From IMG/VR virus record IMGVR_UViG_3300033062_002592, positions 32,001-96,000 of that record: 64,000 bases of DNA. The stretch is one strand, 5' to 3'. The number at the start of each line of letters is the position of its first letter. The first letter of the stretch is position 1. Origin of the DNA: a virus (lineage: Duplodnaviria; Caudoviricetes). The notes beneath the pieces are model-generated. The model saw only the letters and a program-made list of their open reading frames with translations. It was not told the DNA's origin and did no database searches. Positions 27,219 through 60,745 of the stretch are shown here, piece after piece. The position numbers and the translations under genes are program-made.

Positions 27219-28300
27219 GATTAGTTTCAACCTTCGGAGTTAAATGTGGCCTTTCAACCTATAGTACGTATCTCGGCAACGCTCTGCAAAATTCAAAAAT
27301 TTCTGTCACAGGATTATCAGAATTTCCTTTTCCAGATGAAAAAGCTATTACTCCGGATTTTCAACCCAAATTTCCATTCTTCAATTGTTGGAAAAGAACA
27401 GAGTTCTATGATAGATTAATCAAAGAAAGTCATAACTATGATATAATTCATATTCAACATCAGTTTGGATTGTTCAACAATACCTATGCTTGGATACAGC
27501 TTTTGCAAAAGATTAAAAAGCCCATTCTTACAATCCATGATATAGTTCCACCAAATGAGCAGCTTTCAACCTATTTCACAGAAACATTTCACCATGCTGA
27601 TAGGCTCATAGTACATACGAATACTTGCAAAAATATGCTTGAAAGTTGGAACTGTCCAAAAGATAAAATCGAATTGATTCCGCATGGCACAAAACTCATA
27701 GATGTTCCCACCAAAACTGAAGCTCGTAAGGAGCTTCAACTTCCAGAAAATGCAAAGATAATTTTATCATGGGGATTTATTTGGGAATCCAAAGGCTTGC
27801 TAGAGCTAACGAATATTCTTTCAGAAGTTAAAAAAACTTATCCAGAAGCAATTTTAATTCATGCCGGCGGCGTTCACCCTATATTGCAGAAATCGCAATA
27901 TGTTGCGAACATTTTAAAAGCCGCAATAAAATCTGGGCTTGGACCAAAAGATTTAATTATAACCCAGTGGGTTCCAGAAGATAAAGTGCCAACATGGTTC
28001 GGCGCTGCAGATGTAATTGTTTTGAACTATATGAGAGGCAGTGCCTCAGCCAGCGGTGCCGCGCACAGAGCTATGGCTGGTCATCGACCAATTATAAAAA
28101 CAGATGATCCATGTGTTGAAGATATTACAGGTTATACCGTTGCGCGTTTCGATATTAATGCTCTCTATAATGCGATATTGAAAGTTCTACAGGATGAAGT
28201 TTTGCAGAAAACTTTGGTTGAACAGGCAGAAAAAGCTTCCATAGAAACTTCGTGGCAAAACGTTGCTTTGAAGCACAAAAAGCTCTATGGAATGTTTTGA
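27209..28300 (+). CDS. Glycosyltransferase, GT4-like
   Basis: KCGLSTYS, IHIQH, TIHD, IPHG, WGFIWESKG, SASASGA, SWQNVA. Confidence 0.88.
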   Translation: MQLGLVSTFGVKCGLSTYSTYLGNALQNSKISVTGLSEFPFPDEKAITPDFQPKFPFFNCWKRTEFYDRLIKESHNYDIIHIQHQFGLFNNTYAWIQLLQKIKKPILTIHDIVPPNEQLSTYFTETFHHADRLIVHTNTCKNMLESWNCPKDKIELIPHGTKLIDVPTKTEARKELQLPENAKIILSWGFIWESKGLLELTNILSEVKKTYPEAILIHAGGVHPILQKSQYVANILKAAIKSGLGPKDLIITQWVPEDKVPTWFGAADVIVLNYMRGSASASGAAHRAMAGHRPIIKTDDPCVEDITGYTVARFDINALYNAILKVLQDEVLQKTLVEQAEKASIETSWQNVALKHKKLYGMF

Positions 28301-30102
28301 GGCATTCCAGGTATTCCCGGAAATAAACGTTTTCTAAGCCATTCCCAAAAGTTCCATTGATGTTGAGATGCCATAACTGGATAGTTTATTATTGGAATAA
28401 CATTTCCTAATTCAACTTTATTTGTAAAAGTACATATCGATGTATAACCTTGACTATCAAATTTATGTTCTAAATCTATAAGCGCCAAATTTGCAGGAGT
28501 AAATCCTTCTGAACCTATATTTATTAAATACATATTTCCGACTTGTAAACCTGGACTTCCTGTTACAGTTATGGTTGTTTGAATTATTGGATCTTTTTGT
28601 CTTATAATTAACGTATCTGCAATATTTTGGCAATATAGATTACTATTATATGTATTTGAATTTTCTATCTGCGGCCTAAATCCATATAAATTTTGACTTG
28701 TAATATTACTTCCAATTGCTTGAAATTTTGTTCCAATATAAAGTCCATCAAGAAATATGTTTGCCTGTCCAACAGCACCGCCATTCCAAGACCCACTTGT
28801 AAGAAATGTAATTGAATTTATATTAAACCAATCTGGATACCCTATTCTTTTCCAACGGTAGGATCCTGTTGTGGAGTCTTGACTTCCTATCTGACTAAAC
28901 CCTTCATATTCTGGCCCAAGAAATAAAGTATATTCTAAATATCCTGCATATCCCCCACCAATTCCCCACCATTTATAATGGTCTTCTATTCTTGATTCAA
29001 AATAATTGTTTGAATCAGTTTCAAGCCTAACATAACATTTTACTGGAGTTTCTAATGCCCACAAAGTTCCGTAATATACATGCAAAAAGTCTCCATTTGT
29101 AACGAACAAAGTTTTTGGTAATGTTTTAGTTGCGGTAAATACCACATTATCTCCATTTTGAAATCCTGGATTTCCAATGTAAAAATCAATAGAATAAGAT
29201 CCAGAAATTTTATTAATGTCATCATAAATACGTGTTGAGCCAGTGTCAATTCCACGTATGACATCTGTAACTCTTGAAGTCCAACTGCTTCCTGTGGTTT
29301 CACTTCCAGTTTCAGTCCAAATATCGTGGTCTTGGGGCCAATCACTACCAGTCCAACTTGGATCCCTCTGCCCAAAAGCATAAACTTGGTTTATAACATG
29401 TGATAATTCTCTATCTACCCTGTAATCTTTAATATTTGCACCAGTTGTGAAGACTTCTGCTCCAGCTACACTATCTCTTGGAAGCCAATGTAATTTTTTA
29501 TTAACATCAACATAAAAATCATAGGCTACAAAATCACTAATAGTTTTCATAATATTAAAAACTTTTTCATTTTCTACACTCGAAGGATATTCTGTAGCTG
29601 AAGCCACAATATATGCATCATCTGTACTTAGATTTCCTTTTGTAGAGCCAGTACAAAGATTTCTTAAACTTTTTACAATATTATCAGCAGCATCATCCTC
29701 AGGAAATAAATCATCATGATAATATCCACGACTTTGTAAGATTCTATCCATGCATTCTTTATAATCTCTACCTATAAAAGTTCTTAACCAACCATTTCTT
29801 GCAGAAAATTCGCTTCTTATTGTTTCAATTTTTCCCGCAAATTGGTTCGTGCTACCAGTGATATCATATCCATACCAAATTTTTACATCTTCAAAAACAT
29901 TAATATCTTTAAAAGCTCCGGGCACACCAAGTATAGCTGTTGTATCTGGTATTATAATTTCAAAAGATCCAATTGTGCTTGTTAAGCCCTGTTTTACACT
30001 TAATGAAGTCACATAATTTGTGGCGCCATAACCGAAAGCATATTTAAGAGTTGAGCCACTCCAAAATTCAACTCTGTAAACTGGAATTGCTGGAGCAGAC
30101 AT
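28285..30102 (-). CDS. Tail tip / baseplate hub-like protein
   Basis: Last gene of the tail module. FAGKIE..I.S...GRD, DFYVD.NKKLHW and S.NLYG hub-like motifs with an inserted beta domain. Confidence 0.65.
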   Translation of the reverse strand: MSAPAIPVYRVEFWSGSTLKYAFGYGATNYVTSLSVKQGLTSTIGSFEIIIPDTTAILGVPGAFKDINVFEDVKIWYGYDITGSTNQFAGKIETIRSEFSARNGWLRTFIGRDYKECMDRILQSRGYYHDDLFPEDDAADNIVKSLRNLCTGSTKGNLSTDDAYIVASATEYPSSVENEKVFNIMKTISDFVAYDFYVDVNKKLHWLPRDSVAGAEVFTTGANIKDYRVDRELSHVINQVYAFGQRDPSWTGSDWPQDHDIWTETGSETTGSSWTSRVTDVIRGIDTGSTRIYDDINKISGSYSIDFYIGNPGFQNGDNVVFTATKTLPKTLFVTNGDFLHVYYGTLWALETPVKCYVRLETDSNNYFESRIEDHYKWWGIGGGYAGYLEYTLFLGPEYEGFSQIGSQDSTTGSYRWKRIGYPDWFNINSITFLTSGSWNGGAVGQANIFLDGLYIGTKFQAIGSNITSQNLYGFRPQIENSNTYNSNLYCQNIADTLIIRQKDPIIQTTITVTGSPGLQVGNMYLINIGSEGFTPANLALIDLEHKFDSQGYTSICTFTNKVELGNVIPIINYPVMASQHQWNFWEWLRKRLFPGIPGMPQNIP

Positions 30103-30992
30103 TATATTACCTCAATTACATCTAAAGTGAAACTTCTTTCCTGAGGTCTTCCACCTCGGTCTTCAAAATCGATTTTTGAAAAGAATACATTTGTTATAGG
30201 TATTATATTATATCCTCTTTCATCAATATAATTTATTGAACCAGTTGTTCCAGGCAAAGCTCTAAGCCATGCTGAACCTGAATCATTATACGTATAACCC
30301 TTAATAGCGAAAACTCTGTTTTTTGTTCCCATACTTTGTATAACATCAAAGTTAGCCATTGGAATATCGTGTACTACCGTTCTTTGAATTTTTTGTTCCG
30401 TAATTTGATTGGCAATTCCAGATTTTAAGGGTGTACCAATAATTCTAAAGTTGAAGTTTTTATATGTTGGAATATATGCCAACCAACTGCCTCCTCCATC
30501 GGTTGAATAATATCCATCTTCTTGCCATGTTGCTCCACTATAAACACCCGGACTTACTCCCATCCAATATATACAATTAGATGTGTCTCCTGTACCTAAA
30601 ACTGGTCTTACAACAATATTATATGTAATGCCCGGTCTCAATATTATATTTGGAATCACTCTAATATCATACCAGCTCCCCGTGGTGTTTGAAGTTATAT
30701 CTGCCGAAGCAAACGCCCCGCTAGATATAACCAATCCTGAAGGAAAGCCAAGAGATGAATTATAGATACATGCCCATATTGAGGGTGGAACACCAACTTT
30801 AAAAAGCTTAAGTTGTATAGACCATATATTGATACTTTTTCCTAAACCAAAGTCTCCAAGAGCAAAGCTTTCAGAAAGCCAGTTTGTGCCAAAAATGCTT
30901 CCCGAAGCATTATAAGAATCCTCATAGTATTCAATTTTCTGAGGAAAATATGGAAAGAGTTCTCTTATGTTATTATAAATTTTGATTACCAT
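30102..30992 (-). CDS. Distal tail protein with inserted carbohydrate-binding-like domain
   Basis: Follows the tape measure; C-terminal HDIPMANFDVIQSMGTKNRVFAIKG is typical of Dit/tube-initiator proteins. Confidence 0.55.
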   Translation of the reverse strand: MVIKIYNNIRELFPYFPQKIEYYEDSYNASGSIFGTNWLSESFALGDFGLGKSINIWSIQLKLFKVGVPPSIWACIYNSSLGFPSGLVISSGAFASADITSNTTGSWYDIRVIPNIILRPGITYNIVVRPVLGTGDTSNCIYWMGVSPGVYSGATWQEDGYYSTDGGGSWLAYIPTYKNFNFRIIGTPLKSGIANQITEQKIQRTVVHDIPMANFDVIQSMGTKNRVFAIKGYTYNDSGSAWLRALPGTTGSINYIDERGYNIIPITNVFFSKIDFEDRGGRPQERSFTLDVIEVI

Positions 30993-32030
30993 TTATCTGC
31001 CGCCTCTTCTTCGAGCTTCCTGAGCCATTCTCCAAGCTACAGTATCCATCATGTTATCAATATCTACAGTTGATGAAACAGGTCCAGTATTCAAAGTAAT
31101 ATTTATATTATTTAAATTAGTTCCAGCAGGTGTTTGTATTATTGGTTCACTTTTTTGCGTATATACATTTACTCCCATTGGTGGAACAACTTCGTTTTTA
31201 TAGTTATACATATTTGCTATCATTGTTGATGTATTTGTAGTTGTATTTGAGGACGGAAAAACTTCATTTTTATAAATTGGGGGATTTCCCACTGTTAATG
31301 GACTGGGCATTTCTTTTTGCATAAACGTATTTGTGTTTGCCGTTGTAAAGTTATATATATTCATTCCTTCTGGTATAACAGTTTCACCTTTATGTACAAG
31401 CGCAAGGCCTGTTTTTGTAACAACTCCTCCTTTTTGTAGATATGCTATTGTTGATACTATTGGTGCATAAGTTGCCACAGCTCCTGCAACGCCTCCCGCA
31501 GCCGCAGCAGCAGTTTCAGCAGCAGTTGCAGCCCACGCAGCGGAAGCAACATGGGTATAAGAAGTCGCCAGTGCCTCATTTGATATAACCTTTTGAGCAT
31601 CTCCAATTAAACCAAGTTCTTGTGCTATCCTAAACAAATCTACAGCAGTTACAACAATCCTCATTGCAGCACCAACTCCATAAACTGTTGCTGTAACTAA
31701 TTTCAAAACTTCATTATGGTTGAAAAAATAATTATTAAGAACTGATAAGGCTCTGCCCATAAGCATGAAATCCCAGCTTGCGCTGCGAAGAGGAGCTATT
31801 CTTTCCTGTAAAGTTTCTGTATTTTCTCGATTAGCTCTCGAAAAATCCATCGTTGTTGTTGCAGTTATTTTTGTAGCGCCTTGTAAATCCGCCAATCCAC
31901 TTTTTGTTATTTCAATGCCAGAGGTGTCAGCATCCGATGTAACATTGATTCTTATCTCTATGGTATCTCCAGCTCCCCACCCACTTGTAAATGTTCCTCC
32001 TGCACCTCTAATATCCATTCTTGCCGCCAT
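30993..32030 (-). CDS. Short tail tape-measure protein
   Basis: Ala-rich helical/hydrophobic core and LQKGGVVTKTGLALVHKGETVIP motif; downstream of the tail chaperone. Confidence 0.75.
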   Translation of the reverse strand: MAARMDIRGAGGTFTSGWGAGDTIEIRINVTSDADTSGIEITKSGLADLQGATKITATTTMDFSRANRENTETLQERIAPLRSASWDFMLMGRALSVLNNYFFNHNEVLKLVTATVYGVGAAMRIVVTAVDLFRIAQELGLIGDAQKVISNEALATSYTHVASAAWAATAAETAAAAAGGVAGAVATYAPIVSTIAYLQKGGVVTKTGLALVHKGETVIPEGMNIYNFTTANTNTFMQKEMPSPLTVGNPPIYKNEVFPSSNTTTNTSTMIANMYNYKNEVVPPMGVNVYTQKSEPIIQTPAGTNLNNINITLNTGPVSSTVDIDNMMDTVAWRMAQEARRRGGR

Positions 32031-32031
32031 T

Positions 32032-32235
32032 TTATGTCATCCTCATTTTACTTTCCATTTGTTTCAATTTATCTCTTCTTTGAGTTTCCAACTCATTATC
32101 TATAATTATAAATTCTGAAATGGTTTTTGCATCTTCTTTTTCAAGCTGGCTCGGCAAACATTGAAATGCTTTGCACAAGTTGTACTTAACTATAATTGGA
32201 TTTAATGTTTTGTCGTAAGCCAGCTCAATTATAAA
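32032..32235 (-). CDS. -1 frameshift extension of the tail assembly chaperone (gpT-like)
   Basis: The -1 frame after slippery A-AAT-TTA reads FIIELAYDKTLNPIIVKYNLCKAFQCLPSQLEKEDAKTISEF...MRMT and ends just before the TMP ATG. Confidence 0.75.
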   Translation of the reverse strand, partial: FIIELAYDKTLNPIIVKYNLCKAFQCLPSQLEKEDAKTISEFIIIDNELETQRRDKLKQMESKMRMT

Positions 32236-32573
32236 TTTTGTGTTTCAATGTTTCTAACAAGATTTAATTCTGAAGATATTTGAAAGAGGCGTTCTCCAAG
32301 CTGTCCATCCATATTATGAATTTCCTCAATTGTAAATGGAATGAACTTTCCATCTTTTTCATAGAAAACAGTCTTCAAAAGCAATTGTTCATTAAAGTGC
32401 GTACTGTCATAGCTTACAGCTCCAGAAAAAGGATCCACATGGTTGCATTCTGCTGATACAGCATTTTTTTCTCCCCATGTCCATTTGCGAAAGCCAAAAC
32501 GTTGACCGCTGCCAGATGGAATCTCCGTAACGCCTAGTTCACCCTCTTTTTTCAATATATATGTTTCTTTCAT
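32229..32573 (-). CDS. Tail assembly chaperone (gpG-like)
   Basis: Between tube and tape measure; ends on a slippery heptamer; GGAGGT RBS. Confidence 0.75.
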   Translation of the reverse strand: MKETYILKKEGELGVTEIPSGSGQRFGFRKWTWGEKNAVSAECNHVDPFSGAVSYDSTHFNEQLLLKTVFYEKDGKFIPFTIEEIHNMDGQLGERLFQISSELNLVRNIETQNL

Positions 32574-32629
32574 TTAATCGACCTCCTCGGCCTATTTTAT
32601 ATTTTTACGAATTTAAAAAATTGGAAAAT

Positions 32630-33055
32630 TTAAGTGGTAGATGATACAACACTGCCAGTGCCTATGAAATCCCATGTTTCACTAAAGATAGTTGAGCCCG
32701 GTCTATATGATGGTGTAGCTTTGCTCAATTTTAGGCCGCTTATAGTTATATAAGGCAAACCAGCAGCAGAGCCGCTACGGTTGGGCCAAATCTGAATATC
32801 CATATAATCTAATGGATTTTCACCCTTTGCCATCCATGCCCACGGACCAGAGCCAGAATAGAATCTTTCTATAGTAACCGTTGTTTTGTAGCATCCTTCA
32901 AGAATTGCTGCAAGATATCTTGAGCCGCATTCTTCATGCTCTTTTATTCCTTGATCCAAATCGTAGGATACTCGTTGAATTCCGCTGAGTCTTATGTAAG
33001 CACCACTACCAGTTTTAATGAATGTATCTATCTGCCATCCTGCATATACTGGAAT
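32630..33055 (-). CDS. Tail tube (major tail) protein, probable ATT start
   Basis: Frame is open 32 codons upstream of the track's TTG, to ATT 9 nt after AGGAGG. IQRVSYD.DQG.KE..E.GSR...I.EG is a tube-like motif. Confidence 0.7.
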   Translation of the reverse strand: MPVYAGWQIDTFIKTGSGAYIRLSGIQRVSYDLDQGIKEHEECGSRYLAAILEGCYKTTVTIERFYSGSGPWAWMAKGENPLDYMDIQIWPNRSGSAAGLPYITISGLKLSKATPSYRPGSTIFSETWDFIGTGSVVSSTT

Positions 33056-33077
33056 ATTCTCAATCCTCCTTTATTTT

Positions 33078-33566
33078 TTATACTGTAACTCCTTTATTAT
33101 GTTTAACTATATAAGCGTGGCCACTTAGAATTAAGAGTGGCGGTCTTATACTTAAATTATCCATTCTTCGCCATCCTGTAAGATATAAAAATTTTTCAAT
33201 TTTATCATCGTCTTGTTTCAAAATGCTTCCGCTTCTAAGAATTCTTTCAGTTTCTCTGCGAAGTTGATATATTGCATTTTTAGCCCAACCCAAACTTGAA
33301 TTTGAATCCTGAGTTGGTCTAATATAGATTTCAAAACCCACAGATTCTAAATCTCTATAAGTCGGATCTAATCCGCAATCCAAAGGTGGTGATGAAACTT
33401 CACCGGCAGGAATTATAACAATCTGTGGGAATGTAATGTTTTCATTGTAAAGTCTTGTGCTAAAGTGTATTCCTGAACTGTTTATTGTTGCTGCCGCAGC
33501 CAAATCTCCCATCAGAGACCAATTGTTTTTAAGCAGAAGCATAGTTTCAATTATTGCATCAGTCAT
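33078..33566 (-). CDS. Tail terminator/completion-like protein (paralogue 2)
   Basis: Position upstream of the tube gene; FPQI, RP.QDS..SLGWAKNA.Y..RRE. Confidence 0.6.
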   Translation of the reverse strand: MTDAIIETMLLLKNNWSLMGDLAAAATINSSGIHFSTRLYNENITFPQIVIIPAGEVSSPPLDCGLDPTYRDLESVGFEIYIRPTQDSNSSLGWAKNAIYQLRRETERILRSGSILKQDDDKIEKFLYLTGWRRMDNLSIRPPLLILSGHAYIVKHNKGVTV

Positions 33567-33568
33567 TT

Positions 33569-34021
33569 CTAATCTTCTCTAAACATATTATGTCTCACTT
33601 CTATCAAACTTCTTAATATAATTGGGCGCGTTTTTATTTCATCTAAATTTCTTCGTTTAGTTATAAATATGAAATCAGAATGATTATTATCAATAAGTTC
33701 ACTATTATTCCTCAAAATTTTATAAATCTCTCTTCTGATTTTATATTCTGCGTTCTTGGCCCACCCCAAACTTTGACCAGAGTCCTGTTGTGGACGAACC
33801 CAAATATTGATATTAACTCCATCATCAATTTTATACCAAGGATGTATTCCGGCTGTCAACACGCTTTGCGGACCAGAAGAATGAGTTATAGTTATTTGGG
33901 GGAATGCAATATTGTCATCGTACCAACCTGTTGTAAAATTAACATCGTTTATTGTCAAACCCGATTCTGTGAGACTCCAATAATTTCGCAGAAGAGACAA
34001 TATATTTAATTGTATATCCAT
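33569..34021 (-). CDS. Tail terminator/completion-like protein (paralogue 1)
   Basis: True start is probably ATG 34021 (TAATG coupling); clear paralogue of 33078-33566. Confidence 0.6.
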   Translation of the reverse strand: MDIQLNILSLLRNYWSLTESGLTINDVNFTTGWYDDNIAFPQITITHSSGPQSVLTAGIHPWYKIDDGVNINIWVRPQQDSGQSLGWAKNAEYKIRREIYKILRNNSELIDNNHSDFIFITKRRNLDEIKTRPIILRSLIEVRHNMFRED

Positions 34022-34446
34022 TAATATGCACTTCCTGAACGAGGCACCAAGCGTCTCACAATAGCATATTTTGAAACTATGACATCTCCATTTAATCTCC
34101 AAACATGCCTTGATAATATCAAATATCTAATTCCTGAACCTGATGGAATAATGCATTGATCCCACTGCGCTAAATTAACATCGGGATTTACATAAACTCT
34201 TTCAAAATCGTCTTCGTAGAAACCTGCAGGTATAACAATATCTGTGGCGCTGATATGTTGTACTAAAGCTTTGAAGCTTCCAGTTGTCCATATTGTTTGA
34301 GAATCTCCATATCCATATGTTATCGCAGAACTGGTATCATAAGCGCTGCTGGTATCCACAGAACGTTGAAGCCATTGGAGCCATTCTCCATTCTGAGCTA
34401 TTAAATATTGGAATTTTTGTTTTGCATTATTCCAATTTAGATGCAT
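34021..34446 (-). CDS. Head closure (stopper) protein
   Basis: 141 aa; YG...W...F.A.V and D.CI...RY.I beta-barrel pattern; follows the adaptor. Confidence 0.6.
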   Translation of the reverse strand: MHLNWNNAKQKFQYLIAQNGEWLQWLQRSVDTSSAYDTSSAITYGYGDSQTIWTTGSFKALVQHISATDIVIPAGFYEDDFERVYVNPDVNLAQWDQCIIPSGSGIRYLILSRHVWRLNGDVIVSKYAIVRRLVPRSGSAY

Positions 34447-34457
34447 ATTTCATCACA

Positions 34458-34922
34458 TTAGAAATAGCTTGGAGCCGTGTCACTCCAAGTTGTTGTTGGA
34501 CCTTCGGCACTTACTTGTATAGGTTGAATAGCTCTAAGGTGTAACTGTGCGGATTCTTTGAATTGTTCTATGAGATTTCTATAAGTTGATAAAAGCTGAG
34601 GCTGTTGCACTGTAACACCAGCAGTCCAATTGAAACCGTCAACTATTACATCTCCACTTAAAAGTGTTATGAGTCTCATACAACTATAATCAAGTTCACA
34701 GGTTCTAACATGGTTTGAAGTTATAGGGTCTGTAGATTGCATTATTGATAAACCCAAAATTCCATATAAATAATAATTAGCCAAGTTTATTTGTGCAAGG
34801 ACACTTCCGCTGGAAATTCCTTGCCCCCAGAAATAATATTGATTATCTGAACCGCTGTAAGCACCATTTAATGCCAATCTTATATCTTCACAGGTTATAA
34901 CTGGATTTGTATCCGTACTCAT
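34458..34922 (-). CDS. Head-tail adaptor
   Basis: 154-aa helical protein, T.EDIR..L...I..AN.Y pattern; neck-module position. Confidence 0.6.
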   Translation of the reverse strand: MSTDTNPVITCEDIRLALNGAYSGSDNQYYFWGQGISSGSVLAQINLANYYLYGILGLSIMQSTDPITSNHVRTCELDYSCMRLITLLSGDVIVDGFNWTAGVTVQQPQLLSTYRNLIEQFKESAQLHLRAIQPIQVSAEGPTTTWSDTAPSYF

Positions 34923-34930
34923 TTCATCAC

Positions 34931-37900
34931 CTATTCATCTATATATGATTCTTCTCCTTCTTCATTAAAATCTGGTTGACCATCTTCCTTTGATAACCAT
35001 GGAGAATCGGGAGAGGTTGGTTTCAAAAAGCCCGAAGAGTCCCCCTCTTTCTGAGTCCATTTTGTATCACTTATACCTGGCTGAAGCCACACGTTCTCCG
35101 CAGAGCTTCTTCCAAGCCATGTTCTTCTTATAATAACTTGACCTTTTGCATTAACACTATATACATAGTCGCCGAAGCTTAAAAGCTGCATATATGGATA
35201 TACTTTTATAAGATAATCCTTTATTGATGTAAATGCGGGCGTTGTTTTTATATTTTTTTCAGAAAAGTCTATAAATCTTGATAAAACTGAGAAAACTTGG
35301 TCTGTATATCTTGTAAATCTTGGAACAACATCAAAATATTCATCAGTATTGTTTAAAAGTCTTGGCAAAACTTCAATTATAGAATCTCTATAATAAGCAG
35401 CTCCAACAAACATTCTTAAAAGTTGGTCATATCTTGCAGCATACCTTGGGCTTGTTTTTATAATTTCATCTTGATATCTTTCAAGTCTTGGAAGAACTTT
35501 TAAAACTTCCTCTTGTTGCGTCCAAAGCCTTGGAATTGTTTTAAAAACTGCATCTATAAATAATAGAAATGTGGGTTTAACTCTGATAAATTCATCCATT
35601 GCAGATTTAAATCTTGGTAAAGCCTTGAATATTTCATCATATTGAGTTATAATAACTGCGCCGGGAACACTTGCAAGTATTGTAAAAAGCTTATCGCCAT
35701 ATGACATCAATTTAGGAGTGAGCTTTATATTTTTATCATTGAATGATGTCATTCTGGGCAAAAGTCTTAGAAGTTCATCAATTTGAGTTAAAAATCTTGG
35801 ATTAATTCTAATTATTTCATCTTTATAAGATTGGAGTCTTATTAAAATTTTGTATATTTTATCTGAATGTGATAACATTCTCGGCATAAATTTAAGAAAT
35901 TCTTCTTTGTAATTTACAAATTTTGGAGTAGTTTTAAAGGTATTTTCTTTGAATGACATAAATTGTGCTTTAACATTAAACAAGTTATCTACATCTAACT
36001 TTAATTTTGGTAAAACTTTGATTATTTTATCAAAATTGGACATATTAAAACCAACAATCAATTTAATAAGAGTATCTTGATATAACATGAATTTTGGAGT
36101 AATTTTCAAATGTCTATCAAGGTAAATTCTTTGCATTATAAGAACTTTAAATACTTTATCAATATGTTCCATAAGTCTTGGATTGATTTTAATTATTTCA
36201 TCTCTGTGGGCTTGAAAACGAGATAAAATCTTATAGAGAGAATCATTATATGCTATAAATTTGGGCGTTATTTTAAATACAGAATCAAGTCTGGACAAAA
36301 ATAAAGGCATAATTTTAATAAGTTCATCTTTATGGAATTTCAATTGAGGCAAAACTTTAATTATACTATCAAAATTACTTACATTATAACCTACTATCAA
36401 TTTGTAAAGTCTTTCTCCATATGAAACAAACTTTGGAGTTAATTTCAAATGTGTATCAGAATATTGCATCATTCTTGGTAAAAATTTAAAAAGTTCATCT
36501 GTTTGTTGCATGAATTTTGGATTAACTTTGATTATTTTTTCTCTAAAACTTTGAAAACGCAATAAAATTTTATAGAGGGAATCTGCATAAACCAAGAATC
36601 TTGGTAAAGCCTGCAGATTTTTGTCATTAAATGCGGTAAACTTTGGATAAAATTTAATATATTTATCTGTCATATTTAAAAATCTGGGAGTAACCTTTAC
36701 ATTTTTGTCAAAATGCGCTAAAAGTCTGGGTAAAATCTTTATTATAGCATCTGCATGTGAAGTAAATTTGGGAATTATTTTAAAAATTTCATCAGAATAA
36801 GACTTAAATTGAGGTTTTACACGAATGATTTTATCAAGTTGCACTTGCAATCTTGGAAGCAAAATCAGGCATTTTTCTGCATATGATACGAATCTTGGAG
36901 TTAATCTAATGTTTGTATCAGAATATTGCATCATTCTTGCGAGAACTTTAAGCACCTGATCCACTTTTTGCATAAAAGCTGGATTAACCTTAATTATTTC
37001 TTCTTTAAACGATTGAAATCTCAACAAAACTTTGTAAAGTTCTTCAGCGTGTTGCATAAATCTTGGAAAAGTTTTCAGAAATTCTTCCTGAAAAGATAAG
37101 AATCGCGGATTTATTTTAATCTGTTTATCTCCATAAACCATAAATCTGGGCAAAATTTTGAGATTTTCATCCTTTTGAAATGATAGTCTCGGTAAAGTCT
37201 TCATAAACGTATCAGTATTTGTTGGAAACCTTGGCAACATTTTTAAAATATTGTCAAGTTGGCTTCTGTAAAGAACTAAAAGTCTATAATATTCATCTAA
37301 ACCATAATTTTGAAATCTTGGAGAAAATTTGAGTATTTCATCTTTATTGGAGCTTATCCTTGGCAAAGCTTTGACATAAACATTGTCAGCGAAACGTGGA
37401 AAAGTTGGAATAATTCTTATTAATGAACCATCAAAACTCAAAGTTATGGGTTCTGATAAATAAGTACGGTTTGCGGGCAAAGAACTAAGTCTTCCAGCAC
37501 CAGTAGGAATCCATAAATTATTAAATCCAATCTGCCAAACTCCATTTTCGCTAAAATTCCACGAACCACTGTTGGGACCATAAAGGAAGTTAATACTTCC
37601 CGTTTTAAGTAACGCAAGTTGAACAGTTCTATTAGGTATATTTATATTATACAAATCCGGATCCAAAATATGATATGGATATTCATAAGATAATTCTTCC
37701 ACTGTAACAGCTAATCTTGCAGTTATTGGAACAAGTCCCATAATAAATAACAAGGCGCAGCCCTGAGCTGTACTATCATTATCATAGGTGCTAGTGTCGC
37801 TGTAAGCTCTAAATAAATTCGTAGAAGAATTATATAACGTACTATCTTTTATTAAATGGCTCCAAGCTGGTGGGTCACCACTTGGGCCTGTACCAGCCAA

Positions 37901-48535: not shown

Positions 48536-48536
48536 T

Positions 48537-52935: not shown

Positions 52936-53805
52936 TCACGTTATATATAATTCTGCATCTGCAATCCAACACGTAGGTGAACCTGTTAATCTGCCCTGTG
53001 CCCAGAAAATAATTCCAGTAGGAACTGTAGGAGTTCCATTAGAACTACTTACATAAGCAGGAACAATGAAATCTAAAGTTCTTTGCTGCCAAATTCCACC
53101 ATTGGCATCCTGAACATATGCATATTCATAGTGGCCACCGCTGAAGTAGTTATACCAAAATGCTGTTGCTGGAAGTAAAGCTCCACTGTAAAAATCTATA
53201 CCTATACGAGCACCACATTCAGGATAACCTGGCCATGAAGAATCAGTTTGGACTTTCATCCAAGCTTTACCAACAACATGCTTTCCTGGAGTAACAGCAA
53301 AATTTATTGTATTAACTTCTCTTTCAGTATTACTATCAGCTGGTGTATGTGTTTCAATGCGCATACTTGGATTTCCAACGGTTCGAACAGTATTGTAATC
53401 TAAGAAAGTGATTTGTGGGTCAACTCCATGAGCAAAATAACCATATTGCCAGTAAACTTCCCATCCATTGTTGTATGTTAAATTCATGTTTGCGGGAATT
53501 AAAGCCAAGTTAACCGCGGATGCAACTCCTCCCCATATTACATTTCCATAAAAAGTTAATGTGCCCTTATATATTTGCCATATAAAAACATTAGCACCAG
53601 TAGAAATGCTTACGTCCCATTGAAGTTCTTTTAGATAAATTGATCCTCCAGTGTTTGTAAGGACATTGTTAGTGCTTTGTAAAATAGTAGTTAAAACTGA
53701 GCCAGAAAAATCTATCTTTCCAGTTAACCCGTTTTTTGCATAGTATTTACTGTCTGATCCCGACCAAATTAAATATGAAAATGGAATATCACATTTCATA
53801 CTCAT
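52936..53805 (-). CDS. Spike/fibre protein with carbohydrate-binding-like C-terminal domain
   Basis: Starts with the YYAKNG.TG.I.FSGS module shared with the three neighbouring spikes. Confidence 0.65.
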   Translation of the reverse strand: MSMKCDIPFSYLIWSGSDSKYYAKNGLTGKIDFSGSVLTTILQSTNNVLTNTGGSIYLKELQWDVSISTGANVFIWQIYKGTLTFYGNVIWGGVASAVNLALIPANMNLTYNNGWEVYWQYGYFAHGVDPQITFLDYNTVRTVGNPSMRIETHTPADSNTEREVNTINFAVTPGKHVVGKAWMKVQTDSSWPGYPECGARIGIDFYSGALLPATAFWYNYFSGGHYEYAYVQDANGGIWQQRTLDFIVPAYVSSSNGTPTVPTGIIFWAQGRLTGSPTCWIADAELYIT

Positions 53806-53818
53806 ATTTCATCAACTA

Positions 53819-56041
53819 TTAAAGCGCAGCCTTCCAAAATACTCCTGCAGCTCCACCCGCTGTATGATAGACTGTGATATTTGTGGCGTTTACAGTATAA
53901 CTGAATTGTAATGGATTACTGCCTGAAGCATTTAATGAAACCCATCTTGGAGTCTGAGGCAAATTATGAGCAATAGTGCCACCATTGGCGACTGATGCAT
54001 AGCCTGTGCTTTCCCAACCTTGTAAAGAACTGTGGCTGCCGCTTAAGCGAAACAGAGTCCCTGAAGCAGCTCCACTGGCATAATTTATTACATAAGTATT
54101 ATAATCGGATATAGGAGAAATTGCATACTCATTTATTGCATAATTTGATTTGGCAGGAGTTCTATCATCTATGATTTGCTTCGCACTTATGTTGCAATAT
54201 TGAGATTGGTAGAGTTTCACTCCCGAAGAATCATAAAGTCCGCTTGTCGCACAATTATATGTTCTTATATTATCTATTGTGCAATAATTACAATTTTCAA
54301 CATTAACTCCGTCATACCAAGAGTTTTCTGCGTAAATTGAACCAACATGAACATTTTTTGCTCTATAAATGTATAATCCAGCTGATCCACTTATATTTTT
54401 AGCATATATTGAATCTATATTAATATGATGTATATTATCTTGGGTAGCAGCACTAATATTGACTCCTCTACCATTTGAACCAGTTATATAATCTGATACA
54501 ACGCTTCCTATTGAAACTGCATATACCGATCCCGAATTTACAACATTGCTGTCAATGCTTAAGCCACCTGCAACCGCATTATAAGTAATGATTTGACCTA
54601 TAGAAACATGATGTGTTGAACCATAATCGCCAGCTATTCTTACCCCATAACCGCCGCTGCCAGATGTTATAACACTGTTTGCTGTAATGTAGGAGCCTGT
54701 TGCATTATAATAAGGTCCTCCAGTTCCACTTCCAGTCCAAGTCCATATTTCAAGCGTTGCTGCACCAACATCGCTTTGAGATATTTTTTCTGTATATAAT
54801 CTGTCTATAAATACATAATTAGATCCTTCAAGAGATACTAGAGCGTTGCCAATATCATAGCCTTCGGCATATCCTATATTAACATATTTACAGCAGTCGA
54901 GAAGGAATCCTGCCCCGTAACATTTGTTAGAACCTAGGCCAGTTGCTTTAAAGTTAGGAACTGTAATGTAATTACTGCCAGTAATCCAAAACGCTGTAAT
55001 CCAAGCATTTCCAGGAGGACTTTGAGTAGGACTTTGGTTTGCAATATTGGCATCGAATATTGAATTTATACAATTTATATAAATATAATTTTTACTAAAC
55101 GCAGTAAACATGCTTAATCCATTGCCGCTGCCAGAACCATTTAAAATCTTCCAAGTTGCATTTTCAAAAATCAATCCAATATTGTTATAAGGTATGTTGA
55201 CAGTGTTTCCAGCAGTAAATATTCCATCTTTAATAACAACAGTGCCACCATTTGGCATCGTGCCTAATACGTAAGTTAAAAGCGTAGAAGCGCTTGCGCT
55301 TGAAGTTATCACACCAGTGTGACCGTTTTGAGCAGTATAACCGTTAGAACCGCTGTAAAGCACATATGATGCTGGCATCTCTCCCGAACCAGTGTTTGCA
55401 GTTAAATAATAAGTCACATAACCATAGTCATTTGTGCCAGTTATTGTCATGTTTGTTCCGGCATGAAGATTTATCGCAGATCCAGTATATGGCGAACCTT
55501 CATTTGTGTAACCTTTCATAGGTATGTAACTTGCAGTAATCGAACTTCCTGAAATATTTCCAATTATTATAATATTACTACCGCTGATTGTTGTTGCATT
55601 AATTGTACTTCCAGATATTCTTGAGCTTCCAGTAATTGTTGTTGCAACAATGTTTGCGGGATTGAATGTTCCCACTGAAAGTGTACTTGCTGCAACAGTG
55701 CTTCCACTTATAGTTCCGCTGCCTGTCAAGTTTGTAACATAAACATTTGTAATTACAGCAGTGCTTCCAGTCAAGTTTGCAGCTATTATGCTACTTCCCG
55801 AATAAATCGCATTATCATAATCAATATATGATTGTATGACTCCAGTTGTATATCCTTCAAATCTATTTAATGTGTCATCAAAAACTGTCCCACTTAAAGA
55901 ACCCGTAATTGAGTTTTTAACAGTATTATAAACAAGTCCGCTAATAAGAACCTTTCCAGATGATCCAGATTTTCCATAATAATAACTGTCTGTACCCAAA
56001 TAAATTATCCAATCTGAATTAAGATATTGAGTTGTTGACAT
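53819..56041 (-). CDS. Beta-helix (pectate-lyase-like) spike protein
   Basis: GGTVVIKDGIF, FDAN.ANQ, Asn/Ile-rich parallel beta-helix repeats; C-terminal IAH.L...P module. Confidence 0.8.
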   Translation of the reverse strand: MSTTQYLNSDWIIYLGTDSYYYGKSGSSGKVLISGLVYNTVKNSITGSLSGTVFDDTLNRFEGYTTGVIQSYIDYDNAIYSGSSIIAANLTGSTAVITNVYVTNLTGSGTISGSTVAASTLSVGTFNPANIVATTITGSSRISGSTINATTISGSNIIIIGNISGSSITASYIPMKGYTNEGSPYTGSAINLHAGTNMTITGTNDYGYVTYYLTANTGSGEMPASYVLYSGSNGYTAQNGHTGVITSSASASTLLTYVLGTMPNGGTVVIKDGIFTAGNTVNIPYNNIGLIFENATWKILNGSGSGNGLSMFTAFSKNYIYINCINSIFDANIANQSPTQSPPGNAWITAFWITGSNYITVPNFKATGLGSNKCYGAGFLLDCCKYVNIGYAEGYDIGNALVSLEGSNYVFIDRLYTEKISQSDVGAATLEIWTWTGSGTGGPYYNATGSYITANSVITSGSGGYGVRIAGDYGSTHHVSIGQIITYNAVAGGLSIDSNVVNSGSVYAVSIGSVVSDYITGSNGRGVNISAATQDNIHHINIDSIYAKNISGSAGLYIYRAKNVHVGSIYAENSWYDGVNVENCNYCTIDNIRTYNCATSGLYDSSGVKLYQSQYCNISAKQIIDDRTPAKSNYAINEYAISPISDYNTYVINYASGAASGTLFRLSGSHSSLQGWESTGYASVANGGTIAHNLPQTPRWVSLNASGSNPLQFSYTVNATNITVYHTAGGAAGVFWKAAL

Positions 56042-56044
56042 TTA

Positions 56045-58060
56045 TTAAACCTCCGCTCTCCAAAATACTCCCAACGAACCACCTACAGTATGATACACAG
56101 TAATGTTCGTTGCATCTGCTGTATAGCTAAAGTAAGCTGGAATGCTTCCACTCGCAGTTAATGAAATTGTTTTAGGTATTGCAACGCAGCCATGAGCTAT
56201 AGTTCCACCATTTGATATAGAATTATATCCATAATTATCAGTAATATATCCTCTGTTATGTTTTATCATGTTATTGGTACCAACTAAATTCATCACTGTT
56301 CCATTATTTTGGAATATATTATCGTTTATAGTCCAATAGTCAGCAAGATTATTTTGAGTAATACCGTAAGTATTTGAAACAAATATATTTCCTATACAAT
56401 TTACATACATTGAGCCAGTTCCTGTATCCCAACCCGAAAGTCCCACCGTGCTTCCTGAGAAATAGTTATTATTTACTATTGTGTAATTGGCACCATCAGT
56501 AATACCTATTCCAGTGGCATTGTTTAATATTTTGTTTGAATTCAAGTCATTGTTGGACCCACTTCGTAAAAATATTCCTATATTTGAACCTGAAACAATA
56601 TTTCCTTCTACTACCCATTGTTTTCCATAAATCTGTATTCCATAGTATAGAGTATTATATATAATATTATTTGTAAGTAAAACATTGTCAGCATGAAAAT
56701 CTGCTAAATCTCCAATTCCACAAGCCTGAGTTCCAATTGGATTTAAAATTTTGTTATTTGAACAAATGCAATGGTCTGACCTTACTGAAATTCCATAACA
56801 ATCATTATTTACTCTGCCATATTTTTCAATTGTACAATTTGAAATTGTTACATGGGGTGAACCTGAACTTAGATAAACTCCATGCTGAGCAGAGCCACTC
56901 ATATAACATTTATCAATTAAAATGTCTTTAGTTGAACCATATCCGTATGAAGATACGCCAATATAAATGCATCCTTTTGTAATAGTTGAACCACACGATG
57001 TAAAATTACAACTTATCACTTGTGTTCTTTTATTCAAATAAGATAAAACAAGACCAAAATCATATGTATTTGTAATATTAACATCCTGAACTAATGCATC
57101 AGTAGCTCCTGCAAGATATATTCCAGCCGGAATACCAGAAGCTTGTCCACTTGCATTTCCATCTATAAATCCACCTTTTATAGTTATATATGGATCATTA
57201 GATCCTAGATTTGGATTCATAATTACAGGAGCATTTAAGCCCGAATCGGCAACAATTTTTCCATCAATTTCCATAAGTGTATAACTCGGAATTAAAATTG
57301 ATCCTGTTACAATAAAGTTGCCTTTAAGAAAAGCTTTCTCTTGCCAAGTACGACCTGATGTTAAACTATTCAATGCAGCATTAATAACATATGTTGCGCT
57401 GCTACCGCTATAAATTATGCTTCCTGAAGTGCTTTCTGCAAAATATGGACCACCATTGGCTGAACTACTATAAATTATAATATTTGAAGGAAGTTGATTA
57501 TAAAGTACATCCATTGATATGGGCACAGCAGAGCTTGAAATTGTAAGAATCTGTCCAGTTTGACTTACTGTAGTACCACCACTACCTGTGAAATCGACAT
57601 CTCCGAAAAGATTTGTGCTACCGAGAACAGAGTTGCTGTGGACACCAACGTGAACGTGGTCGTCATGGCTTGGAGTGTCTCCACTTCCAGAATACGCCGT
57701 TGATCCAATGTCTTGAGGATTGTTATTACTTAAACTTGGTGAGCCATGAGTGTGGTCGCCTTTGCTATAGTAAGTTGACATTCCAACGTTAGAACTTAAT
57801 CCATAAGTTGTTTCTTCAGTCATTGGACCTGCATATGGACTTGCTGCAGTTAAACCATCAATTTTAATATTTTTACCAGTTTGAGTAAGAGTTATAGCAC
57901 TACCCTGTTCTAATGTAATATCACCAACTACAGCAGCGCTGCCGCTTTTAGCAACTGAAGTCACAAGACTTCCTTGGTAGGCCGCGCCTGATATATTCAT
58001 ACTACCACTTATGTACGGCGCAGATACTAAAGCTGGTGTAAATTTACTCCACGATGACAT
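56045..58060 (-). CDS. Beta-helix (pectate-lyase-like) spike protein
   Basis: DHTH/DHVH fibre motifs, IDGN...Q, repeated I.NN.I strands; shared C-terminal module. Confidence 0.8.
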   Translation of the reverse strand: MSSWSKFTPALVSAPYISGSMNISGAAYQGSLVTSVAKSGSAAVVGDITLEQGSAITLTQTGKNIKIDGLTAASPYAGPMTEETTYGLSSNVGMSTYYSKGDHTHGSPSLSNNNPQDIGSTAYSGSGDTPSHDDHVHVGVHSNSVLGSTNLFGDVDFTGSGGTTVSQTGQILTISSSAVPISMDVLYNQLPSNIIIYSSSANGGPYFAESTSGSIIYSGSSATYVINAALNSLTSGRTWQEKAFLKGNFIVTGSILIPSYTLMEIDGKIVADSGLNAPVIMNPNLGSNDPYITIKGGFIDGNASGQASGIPAGIYLAGATDALVQDVNITNTYDFGLVLSYLNKRTQVISCNFTSCGSTITKGCIYIGVSSYGYGSTKDILIDKCYMSGSAQHGVYLSSGSPHVTISNCTIEKYGRVNNDCYGISVRSDHCICSNNKILNPIGTQACGIGDLADFHADNVLLTNNIIYNTLYYGIQIYGKQWVVEGNIVSGSNIGIFLRSGSNNDLNSNKILNNATGIGITDGANYTIVNNNYFSGSTVGLSGWDTGTGSMYVNCIGNIFVSNTYGITQNNLADYWTINDNIFQNNGTVMNLVGTNNMIKHNRGYITDNYGYNSISNGGTIAHGCVAIPKTISLTASGSIPAYFSYTADATNITVYHTVGGSLGVFWRAEV

Positions 58061-58066
58061 ATTTCA

Positions 58067-60745
58067 TTAAACCTCCGCCTTCCACATACATATTAAATCA
58101 CTTGCGAGTGTAACTGGGATGTTAATCTGGAAAGTTGCACTGCCAGTGTTACTGACCCACCATCGGGTGTCAGCCATTGGATTTACATTAACATAATTTG
58201 GTACTGCTGCAAGACCATGTGTAATAGCACTGCTGGTTTGACCTGCTGTTATGGTTGTTGTCCCAGAATTTTCTGTTTTATATCCAATATTATTAAAAAT
58301 TTTGTTTGTAGCAGCAGCAGTTGATGTATTTGTTATTTGAGCTGTGATATTACCATAAACTTGAACACCTGTTACCAAAGCTGAATCTGTACCACCCCAA
58401 ATTCGTATTCCTCTTGTTTGTGTAGCAACTCCAGTATCATAATATAATCCGCCTATAATACTAATTTTTGATCCTGTCCATAAACTAACACCATCTTGAA
58501 TACCACTTCCAGTTCTACCATTATTTTCTGCTACACAATTTACAAGTGTTTGTGTTGTGGCAAGACTATTTTCACATAACCACCCAGCTTGTTTATTATC
58601 TTGAGCTTCGCAATCTGTATATCTAACACCCGTAGCCTGTCCTATATAAAAACCGGAATATGTACCACCACCTATTCCGCAACCAAACGCTTTACATCCT
58701 ATATAATGTCCATCACTATTAAATACATTAAATCCATTATATATAGCAGCTTCAGCAATACATCCAATAATAATATCATCACTTCCACCCAAACTGAAAG
58801 AATGTTGTCCTGAAGCATTAACATGAATTCTTGAAAGCAAAGATGCTCTTGTATCTCCACTAATATGTATTCCATCAGTTAGTGGTTCATTTATATCTAT
58901 ATCTTCTATTACATGCATACTATCATAAGCTACATAAGGAGTATTAATATAAATAGCATAGCTTGTTCCACTTTGGTTGGATTTGTTTCCATAAATTTGG
59001 AAATTGTTTAATTTGCATTGTATTACTCCAGAACCAGTTATATTAATCACATTACAATTAGAATTATTTAATAGATATATTTCGCTTCCGATACCTTCTC
59101 CACATAAGTGTATTTTTGAACCAGAAATAGATAATGTAGCATTTGTGTAATAAATTCCATTTTTGAGAAATGCTAATCCACCATTAGATACTAATTTACT
59201 CAAAGCAGTTTGTATAGCAATTGTTGCGCTTGAACCACTGTAAGCCACCTGTCCTGTACTTCCGCTTGTAGTATAGTAAAGACCATCTGATCCACTATAA
59301 ACTATGAAAGAAGCTGGAGTTACAATTGTTGTTGAAGGTAATCCTGAATAAGTTGTTGCTGTAAGAGTTGTAAATATAGCACTGTTACCTATATAAGTGC
59401 TACCAGAAATTGTACTACCAGTTATGTAAGATGAATTTATATTTGTAATTGCAGCATTTGAACCTGAAAATAGGCTACCTGTGATATTTGTAGCTGTTAA
59501 AGTCGTTACAAAAGCATTGCTGCCACGAAGTGTGCTTCCGCTTACAGTTCCGCTACCGCTCAAATTCGTAACATACGCATTGGTTATTACGGCAGTTGAG
59601 CCGCTGAAAGTGCTTCCAGAAATCATGCTTCCCGAAACGTTTGTCGCATAAATATTTGTTAGACCAGACAATGCCGATGATAATGCAGTTTGTATTACCT
59701 GTCCAGATTGTGTAACCACTATGTTTGGTGGACTACCAGTTAGATATATTCTGCTGTAAAGTGCCGATGAACCTGAATTTGCTAAACTCAGAACTCCTCT
59801 GTGATAATGGTCTCCATGACTTCCAGATGTTGAAGTTCCAGCTGCCGAAGAACCAGAAACGTCTGTTGGAACCAATTCATATAAACCTGGAGTGCCGTGA
59901 ACATGGTCTGCTCTTGCAAGCATTGTGTTGTCGTCCCCAACAAGAGCCGTTTGACCATAAACATATGAAGATGATACATAATTTGCAAAACTTCCACCGC
60001 CTCCACCACTTCCAGTTGACTGTAATGATAGATTAATTCTATCATTTGCACCGTCATCTGTCATTTGAATTATCATGCCACCGGCATTTGTAATATTCAC
60101 AATCCTTCGAGCAAATGTGGTGGCGCTGCCAGTTTGAATATGCATTGCAGGACCATAATAATCAGCGCCTGTAATGTATCCTGTTACAACTAATCCTGCG
60201 CCAGTTATATATGAAACTGCAGAACCAGTTACAACAAGCTGAGGAATTGTGAGACTGTAATTTGAGAAATCTGTTATTTGACTTTTAGAAATAGTTCCTA
60301 ACAATGAACTGCCGCTGATGCTTCCAGTCACAATCAAGCTGCCGCTTATGCTTGAAGTTCCCGAACCAGTTATGCTTAAAGCATTGTTGATATCTATAAT
60401 TTGATTTTTATAAATTGAAACTGCATCAGTGCTTCCAGAAGTATGTGTGGGACCATGAGAAGCTGGGCTGTGAGTTCTAACAGTCGTTAAATTTAATCCC
60501 GAGAAATAATCTGTATCAACAGCATGGTCAACAACTTTGCTGCCGCTGGTAGCATAATCGGATTTAAGCATGTCACCTAAACCTGTTGCGCTGATTCCTT
60601 GATAGTTGGAACCACTTATAGTTCCGATAACAGTTAAAGTGCCTGTTACAGTTGCACTTCCAGAACTTGAAGAACCTGTTACAACTTTTAAATTTCTACA
60701 TCTAATCTCTCTGTAGGCATCGAGAGTTCCTCTATTATATGGCAT
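58067..60745 (-). CDS. Beta-helix (pectate-lyase-like) spike/fibre protein
   Basis: ARADHVH fibre motif, [S/T]GS-rich stalk, GG..FLKNG.Y, IYGNK.NQ, C-terminal ITHGL...P. Confidence 0.8.
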   Translation of the reverse strand: MPYNRGTLDAYREIRCRNLKVVTGSSSSGSATVTGTLTVIGTISGSNYQGISATGLGDMLKSDYATSGSKVVDHAVDTDYFSGLNLTTVRTHSPASHGPTHTSGSTDAVSIYKNQIIDINNALSITGSGTSSISGSLIVTGSISGSSLLGTISKSQITDFSNYSLTIPQLVVTGSAVSYITGAGLVVTGYITGADYYGPAMHIQTGSATTFARRIVNITNAGGMIIQMTDDGANDRINLSLQSTGSGGGGGSFANYVSSSYVYGQTALVGDDNTMLARADHVHGTPGLYELVPTDVSGSSAAGTSTSGSHGDHYHRGVLSLANSGSSALYSRIYLTGSPPNIVVTQSGQVIQTALSSALSGLTNIYATNVSGSMISGSTFSGSTAVITNAYVTNLSGSGTVSGSTLRGSNAFVTTLTATNITGSLFSGSNAAITNINSSYITGSTISGSTYIGNSAIFTTLTATTYSGLPSTTIVTPASFIVYSGSDGLYYTTSGSTGQVAYSGSSATIAIQTALSKLVSNGGLAFLKNGIYYTNATLSISGSKIHLCGEGIGSEIYLLNNSNCNVINITGSGVIQCKLNNFQIYGNKSNQSGTSYAIYINTPYVAYDSMHVIEDIDINEPLTDGIHISGDTRASLLSRIHVNASGQHSFSLGGSDDIIIGCIAEAAIYNGFNVFNSDGHYIGCKAFGCGIGGGTYSGFYIGQATGVRYTDCEAQDNKQAGWLCENSLATTQTLVNCVAENNGRTGSGIQDGVSLWTGSKISIIGGLYYDTGVATQTRGIRIWGGTDSALVTGVQVYGNITAQITNTSTAAATNKIFNNIGYKTENSGTTTITAGQTSSAITHGLAAVPNYVNVNPMADTRWWVSNTGSATFQINIPVTLASDLICMWKAEV

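Follow-up and report, generated by a model that had tools for sequence, protein, structure and literature searches.

The window analyzed here is a stretch of 64,000 nucleotides from an uncultured tailed virus, bases 32001-96000 of the 106,319-base IMG/VR virus record IMGVR_UViG_3300033062_002592 (completeness estimate 78%). This work concerns a tripeptide, Ser or Thr followed by Gly and Ser ([S/T]-G-S, hereafter [ST]GS), that recurs in its predicted virion proteins, together with a cluster of sugar-related genes on the opposite strand. The plus-strand arm (positions 1-28300) contains replication and nucleotide genes, including those for a family-B DNA polymerase (PolB), a PD-(D/E)XK nuclease, a DNA methylase, a dUTPase and NrdD, and it ends with the sugar-gene cluster. 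The minus-strand arm is a structural module of the tailed-virus type, with terminase, portal, HK97-type major capsid protein (MCP), cement-like, tape-measure-like and large beta-helix proteins; an HK97-fold capsid protein, a portal and a large terminase, the set that characterizes HK97-fold tailed viruses, are all present. Below, the record is referred to as G000, its relatives as G001-G006 and L013-L041, MCP homologues by P-numbers, and single genes by their lower coordinate in the window.

The [ST]GS excess and its distribution among virion proteins

The minus-strand arm contains 167 [ST]GS sites, approximately nine times the ∼19 expected from whole-protein shuffles. In an unbiased scan against the same shuffles, SGS (95 observed, 10.2 expected, z 25) and TGS (72 observed, 8.9 expected, z 19.6) are the two most enriched of all tripeptides. 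When residues were shuffled only inside blocks of 8, 12 or 20, so that the local composition was preserved, 25-31 sites were expected and z was ∼27. The permuted tripeptides are at background (SSG 17, GSS 19, TSG 16, GTS 6, STG 15 and SGT 12). The comparison with composition and with permuted tripeptides, which the initial annotation had proposed as a check, is passed by a wide margin, and the [ST]GS excess is real and very strong.

Each of the three positions is restricted. Ahead of GS only S (95 sites) or T (72 sites) is enriched, between the two hydroxyl residues only G, and after [ST]G only S, SG followed by any other residue being at background. The near variants [ST]GT, NGS, DGS and AGS are at or under expectation, with AGS observed 0 times against 5.9 expected. 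The flanks are nearly uninformative except for a mild preference for I or V at position -1; there is no D at -1, and no enrichment of D or E was found between -6 and +8 around the motif.

An artefact of composition, low complexity, DNA repeats or wrong open reading frame (ORF) calls would be favored by the higher S, T and G content of the motif-bearing proteins, but it is extremely improbable: whole-protein and local shuffles and permutations leave a 5- to 9-fold excess, and the sites are conserved in independently assembled relatives. In addition, the 167 sites comprise 80 distinct 9-mers, use many synonymous codons and lie in unrelated folds, which places the signal in the protein and not in a DNA repeat, as had been argued from the initial reading of the sequence. 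Beta-helix periodicity as a cause was rejected for lack of regular motif spacing; the spacings are short and irregular, and thus do not form a solenoid ladder. In the cultured control, cyanophage Syn9, [ST]GS is at baseline over the first 50 kb.

All 167 sites are confined to 20 proteins of the minus-strand arm (8026 aa in total; Table 1). The 15 other proteins of this arm (3412 aa) have 0 motifs against 1.5 expected, and the plus-strand arm (9017 aa) has 2 against 3.1 expected, one in NrdD (12531) and one in the thiamine diphosphate (ThDP) enzyme at 18822; therefore, the non-bearing proteins are at baseline and not depleted. Hand counts in the initial annotation were reproduced almost exactly (12 at 42168, 10 at 47621, 11 at 28285, 5 at 42829, 4 in the MCP, 4 at 30102, 3 each at 44452, 34021 and 46396, and 23, 33 and 27 in the 740-, 892- and 2227-aa proteins). 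The recount also found no motif in the portal, terminase, protease/scaffold, JAB and tape-measure proteins and two in the plus-strand arm, as described there, and the proposed split between outer proteins and inner or non-virion proteins holds. The four motifs ascribed to a tail tube were not recovered, the tube-position genes 33078 and 33569 having 1 and 0, respectively, and two motif-rich genes were missing from the original list, namely those for the 671-aa beta-helix protein (14 motifs) and 48537 (4 motifs). Some of the names given to these proteins are also weaker than the counts. The terms hub, distal tail, stopper and tube derive from gene position alone, with no match in PHROGs or Pfam, and the protein at 47621, named for a dockerin domain, has its ten motifs but a weak dockerin match under the Pfam cut-off.

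Table 1. Genes of the structural arm and of the sugar-gene cluster, with positions in the window and numbers of [ST]GS motifs (GT, glycosyltransferase; SDR, short-chain dehydrogenase/reductase)
Feature	Coordinates	Strand	[ST]GS motifs	Basis
MCP, HK97 fold (motifs at residues 56, 135, 156, 239)	43441..44370	-	4	Pfam Phage_capsid; model
Cement/decoration-like protein	44452..44898	-	3	weak Pfam Phage_cement_2 match
205-aa protein, family unassigned (12/12 GS preceded by S/T)	42168..42785	-	12	counts
182-aa protein	42829..43377	-	5	counts
2227-aa protein	34931..41614	-	27	counts
605-aa protein, last tail gene (hub by position)	28285..30102	-	11	counts
296-aa tail protein	30102..30992	-	4	counts
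Six small head-tail and tail genes	32229..34922	-	1, 3, 1, 0, 3, 2	counts
86-aa protein	46396..46656	-	3	counts
330-aa protein (weak dockerin-like N-terminus) and overlapping 247-aa ORF 48537	47621..49280	-	10 and 4	counts
Four large fibre/spike-type proteins (289, 740, 671, 892 aa)	52936..60745	-	3, 23, 14, 33	counts
Portal (control)	50929..52926	-	0	profile match
Large terminase (control)	62227..63666	-	0	profile match
402-aa scaffold/protease-like protein (control)	44915..46123	-	0	weak PHROG head maturation protease match
JAB/Zn-ribbon protein	46686..47423	-	0	profile match
345-aa tape-measure-like protein (control)	30993..32030	-	0	PHROG scan, counts
Atypical soluble GT-B, GT4-like, last gene of the sugar cluster, converging on tail genes	27209..28300	+		Pfam
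Paralogous GT-B, conserved across the clade	26079..27218	+		hhalign
GTs of the cluster (14914..26079)	14914, 20593, 23226, 24347	+		Pfam
SDR epimerase/dehydratases of the cluster	16434, 17977, 21600	+		Pfam
ThDP enzyme of the cluster	18822	+		Pfam
Methyltransferases of the cluster	15867, 17367, 22649	+		Pfam
Separate GT4 among replication genes (61% identical in G001)	10811..12070	+		Pfam

The absence of the motif extends to relatives. Orthologues of the portal, terminase, scaffold/protease-like, JAB and tape-measure-like proteins in motif-bearing relatives also have 0 motifs; the scaffold/protease-like protein has 0 in all relatives, and the portal has 0 in G001, L017 and G005 and 1 in L013. 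Within the motif-bearing set, two of the four large fibre/spike-type proteins have right-handed beta-helix domains, and their motif spacing is non-periodic. The motif-bearing set reaches beyond the region first described, as four motif-rich genes are located past the window end, upstream of the terminase (positions 97659-102612 of G000, minus strand), encoding proteins of 279 aa (5 motifs), 198 aa (9), 129 aa (3) and 356 aa (4).

In the 2227-aa protein all 27 motifs are within residues 1-1349, and the C-terminal 880 residues, with 14-residue LPR[F/L] repeats, have none. This tandem repeat (approximately D-x-x-[FL]-K-x-L-P-R-[FL]-x-x-x-x) is present in 20 copies (residues 244-317, 892 and 1460-2110) spaced by 14 residues or multiples of 14, and two more copies were found in a small ORF upstream of the terminase (63690-63965, minus strand).

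Placement on the capsid protein and restriction to one clade

The MCP was modelled from a 99-sequence alignment (pLDDT, the predicted local distance difference test score, 85; pTM, the predicted template modelling score, 0.81); an earlier model from a shallow alignment (pLDDT 44) was too poor and was discarded. The retained model matches HK97-fold capsids, with the archaeal virus HFTV1 as the best match. In this model, site 56 is directly past the first strand of the E-loop hairpin, site 135 immediately after the spine helix, site 156 in a small hairpin and site 239 in an A-domain loop, so that all four sites are predicted to be in loops or at strand edges, adjoining indel-prone alignment columns. 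In HK97 capsids the E-loop is on the exterior.

By comparing relatives at decreasing MCP identity, we delimited the taxonomic range of the excess. Relatives at 89%, 75%, 62% and 54% identity have the same excess (z 13-29), and those at 49% and 40%, as well as ∼20 relatives near 25%, have none (z < 3.2). Similarly, all 54 MCP homologues of at least 54% identity possess 2-4 motifs each, and the 95 homologues of 49% identity or less have a mean of 0.25-0.48 motifs. In the MCP tree the 54 motif-bearers form one clade (support 99), and its sister is a five-member motif-free clade (support 98). As judged from these sequences, the [ST]GS excess is a derived trait with a single origin in one virus clade.

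Within the clade the motif is conserved with turnover. In the MCP, three of the sites are almost invariant, and the fourth switches between TGS at 135 and SGS at 136, thus the motif is retained while its register moves. In the other proteins about half of the sites are common at 35-45% identity, far above the rate for three random residues, and gains of new sites elsewhere indicate that the motif density is maintained. Orthologues of the cement-like protein (44452) have 3-5 motifs, with 1-3 in common positions, and orthologues of the 605-aa protein (28285; 26-37% identity) have 12-18 motifs with only 3-6 at shared positions. The homologous loops of the outgroup MCPs often read AGT or similar, which suggests that existing Gly turns were converted to the motif.

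The capsid gene also shows another kind of variation in this virus group. In P0060, P0066, P0069, P0075, P0078 and P0085-P0093 it carries fused or inserted domains of the endonuclease type (PF04480, PF18741, PF03852 and the LAGLIDADG families PF00961/PF14528), which suggests inteins or mobile introns within this gene.

A search for the host by a profile scan of genome contigs with the MCP alignment gave no match, and the neighbours of PolB in the protein atlas are mixed, both viral and bacterial. Weak archaeal-flavoured Pfam matches and the best capsid match, HFTV1, give a hint of an archaeal host.

The sugar-gene cluster and its GT-B pair

The initial annotation located a glycosylation pathway on the opposite arm, and the Pfam scan confirmed a large cluster of soluble sugar-nucleotide and glycosyltransferase (GT) genes there; seven proteins match GT1, GT2 or GT4 Pfam families. 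A hydrophobic-stretch scan of the GT, SDR and unannotated cluster proteins found no transmembrane segments, and lipid-carrier, flippase and oligosaccharyltransferase families were absent from the scanned cluster proteins.

The last gene of the cluster, the GT-B at 27209, has orthologues in G001, L038, L040 and L041 (63%, 45%, 46% and 50% identity, respectively). Its family is a discrete orthogroup of ∼57 proteins with at least 40% identity, followed by a gap down to 30% or less, and it covers the same clade as the motif. Five viruses were examined (G000, G001, L038, L040 and L041), and in each of them the orthologue is the final transferase gene of the cluster, with a methyltransferase gene after it in L040. 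It is adjoined by virion genes that are rich in [ST]GS and whose transcription runs toward the cluster. The adjoining gene in G000, G001, L038 and L041 is the large last tail gene. The nearest outgroup of the family is found in an ordinary cellular Wzy/flippase polysaccharide locus.

The neighbouring GT-B at 26079, likewise with orthologues in G001, L038, L040 and L041, is a clear paralogue of the 27209 family (hhalign probability 100, 26% identity). The conserved core of the cluster includes these two GT-B genes, a GT2 gene like 24347 and an SDR gene like 16434, the latter two being the only ones among the 14914..26079 genes that are conserved as far as L038. Genes for aminotransferase, nucleotidyltransferase, B12-radical-SAM, C-methyltransferase and ThDP enzymes come and go among clade members, and sugar chemistry, as far as gene content tells, seems to vary widely among close relatives. 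A fixed attachment code with a fixed transferase and variable sugar genes is the combination expected of a priming enzyme with variable elongation.

Among the variable genes, those for B12-binding radical-SAM and SPASM-domain radical-SAM proteins are located beside sugar and virion genes in L015 (209-2705) and L041 (2005-3336); G000 has the ThDP enzyme instead.

Canonical retaining GT4 enzymes have an E-x7-E motif in the C-terminal domain. Both glutamates are missing from the viral GT-B family in its alignment to 6kih, where EPFGLVAIEAMA of the solved enzyme faces RGSASASGAAHRALA of the viral family. In place of E-x7-E, the GT-B paralogues have an invariant R-G-S-x-S-A-S-G-A-x-H-R (or Y-S-A-S-A-S-A-H-R), along with many invariant His residues. 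The conserved S-A-S-A-S...H-R makes both families atypical, and by its sequences the pair looks like an undescribed GT-B subfamily. Among deposited phages, 27209 and 26079 match only one huge uncultured phage (23-24% identity), 20593 has no match, and 24347 matches only generic GT2 enzymes. A profile scan of viral contigs with the GT alignment returned only G001.

Two further enzymes lie outside the cluster. A pyridoxal phosphate-dependent PALP enzyme of the cysteine-synthase/threonine-synthase fold (1275-2213, plus strand; 46% identical in G001) is encoded in the replication-gene region and may belong to a pathway modifying DNA or metabolites. A gene for a class-I S-adenosylmethionine-dependent methyltransferase (60748-61359, minus strand) lies in the structural arm, where it separates the 892-aa fibre-type gene from the terminase block; a homologue was not detectable in G001.

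Interpretation and comparison with known systems

We consider it roughly an even chance (probability of about 0.5) that [ST]GS serves as the acceptor sequon for cytoplasmic O-glycosylation of proteins by a virus-encoded system, with the GT-B at 27209-28300 as the best candidate for the motif-reading enzyme. In the mechanism that we infer, which includes the modification and its sugar nature, the acceptor residue, the priming enzyme and the function of the coat, this soluble virus-specific GT-B, possibly together with its paralogue at 26079-27218, would recognise exposed [ST]GS turns on virion proteins. It would transfer the first sugar onto a hydroxyl group, most likely the one on the Ser that is invariant at position 3. 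Extension of the glycan would fall to the other soluble transferases, using deoxy, branched and methylated sugars supplied by the products of the neighbouring SDR, ThDP and methyltransferase genes. The outcome would be a glycan coat on the capsid, decoration, tail and fibre surfaces, and internal or non-particle proteins would never have been selected to carry the motif.

Several points weigh against glycosylation as the function of the motif. The modification of the [ST]GS sites is itself putative, and E-x7-E is missing from the conserved GT-B family, so its chemistry may differ from that of ordinary GT4 enzymes. Since the motif and the GT-B orthogroup are both confined to one clade, their association is a single event that could result from shared ancestry alone. 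The expectation that relatives without GTs lack the motif was borne out in part: G005, the closest motif-free relative of adequate length, has no GT1/GT2 family gene in 47 kb (about half of its genome), but the distant motif-free relatives G002, G003 and G006 carry other GT genes, of the GT1 family. Sampling of the sister group is thin, as the nearest sister contig, L013, is 14.6 kb long and those of P0099 and P0097, also from the sister clade, reach only 3-4 kb. The mapping on the MCP, proposed in the expectation of outward-facing loops, supports loop placement for the four sites but leaves their outward orientation putative. Finally, the sugar cluster could serve another target, for example DNA or a free glycan.

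The strict three-position specificity argues for macromolecular recognition without specifying its kind, and the motif might be read by something other than a glycosyltransferase. Such a reader could be the enzyme of another modification (phospho-type, acyl, or ester-linked small proteins attached via a ubiquitin-like E1/E2/JAB system), or [ST]GS could be where a decoration or assembly factor binds. We regard this explanation as rather unlikely, although the missing E-x7-E residues of the conserved GT-B family would fit it. The same is true of the JAB/Zn-ribbon protein encoded in the head-gene block, which is conserved at 40-67% identity in all motif-bearing relatives; the corresponding region of the motif-free fragments L013 and G005 showed no such protein, and this tracking of the clade leaves room for a non-sugar reader. 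Ubiquitin-like conjugation normally targets Lys, however, and the scanned proteins included neither a kinase nor any other modifying enzyme, much of the record being outside that scan. The GT-B pair is the only enzyme family shown to share the range of the motif and to adjoin the virion genes.

A second possibility, to which we give a similarly low weight, is that the tripeptide is unmodified, a small hydrophilic turn selected for surface physics (solubility, low stickiness or flexibility), with the sugar cluster serving some other purpose. The sites occupy loops and the ends of strands, where a hydrophobic strand-like run often precedes them, their spacings are short and irregular as in hairpins, and the outgroup MCP positions are already x-G-x turns such as AGT. 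Yet a turn selected in this way would tolerate [ST]GT, NGS, DGS and AGS, which are not enriched, and the same folds in the sister clade and in ∼20 other relatives manage without the motif, as does the cultured control Syn9 with its baseline frequency. The abrupt virion-wide gain in a single clade is also more readily explained by a newly arrived reader than by altered folding rules.

If glycosylation is the function, the code might extend further. It is conceivable, though doubtful, that [ST]GS is a general short virion O-glycosylation sequon, adopted independently or spread anciently in unrelated tailed-virus lineages, among them the present HK97-type virus with its archaeal-flavoured genes. 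Its readers would then be soluble transferases that differ, or are very divergent, between lineages, such as the atypical GT-B family without E-x7-E found here, and viruses would gain a programmable glycan shield in which sugar chemistry varies under a fixed attachment code.

Very few sequons are defined for the O-glycosylation of proteins, and among the full-text papers searched none was described for a cytoplasmic system encoded by a virus. The present case is unusually clean: its 167 sites follow a strict pattern, the trait has one origin, and an enzyme family matches it. If the glycosylation reading is true, a three-residue code would predict glycosylated virion surfaces from sequence alone, and the motif would show which faces of the particle are exposed. 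It would also explain the large sugar clusters beside tail genes in uncultured viruses and provide a minimal pair of tag and enzyme for attaching sugars to proteins in the cytoplasm.

The paper on HFTV1 reports no virion glycosylation, and that on Bathyarchaeia viruses mentions only N-X-S/T, in a spindle virus. The analogy with proteoglycan xylosylation drawn in the initial annotation did not stand: in both cases Ser is beside Gly, but the xylosylated Ser precedes Gly and has acidic residues nearby, whereas here the invariant Ser follows Gly, the acidic flanks were not found (-6 to +8), and the GTs include no related enzyme family. The GT9-type family of autotransporter heptosyltransferases (TibC/Aah) is absent from the Pfam matches of the cluster proteins. 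The general O-glycosylation of Bacteroidetes uses the sequon D-[ST]-[AILVMT] and is extracytoplasmic, in contrast to [ST]GS, without D at -1, and to GTs without transmembrane segments.

Three systems are closer. The capsid of chlorovirus PBCV-1 is glycosylated by virus-encoded cytoplasmic enzymes, its glycans being N-linked to Asn. Virus-encoded soluble machinery and a non-canonical acceptor site would be common to both, and the methyltransferases of the present cluster suggest methylated sugars; however, [ST]GS has no Asn and would be O-linked, and the virus realm and the capsid fold differ. The GtfA/GtfB system, which acts on serine-rich-repeat adhesins of Gram-positive bacteria, performs cytoplasmic O-glycosylation of Ser by a GT-B of the GT4 family with a paralogous GT-B partner, followed by stepwise soluble extension. 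Two paralogous GT-B families (27209 and 26079) are similarly conserved together in the five viruses examined, although searches of the PDB with the viral GT-Bs gave no sequence match to GtfA/GtfB. In contrast to that pair, the same conserved residues are retained in both viral paralogues, neither of which therefore resembles a degenerate partner, and the substrates are not Ser-rich repeats, the motifs being dispersed in non-repetitive sequence.

Mycobacteriophage virions are reportedly glycosylated by phage-encoded glycosyltransferases, their capsid and tail-tube subunits bearing the sugars on C-terminal extensions, with no short sequon defined. The present virus resembles them in having its own soluble transferases, with capsid and tail proteins as presumed targets, and cytoplasmic modification before release would match. 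It differs from them in that the MCP sites (56, 135, 156 and 239 of 309 residues) are in internal loops and not in a C-terminal extension, a strict tripeptide is spread through the loops of ∼20 proteins, and the cluster is much larger.

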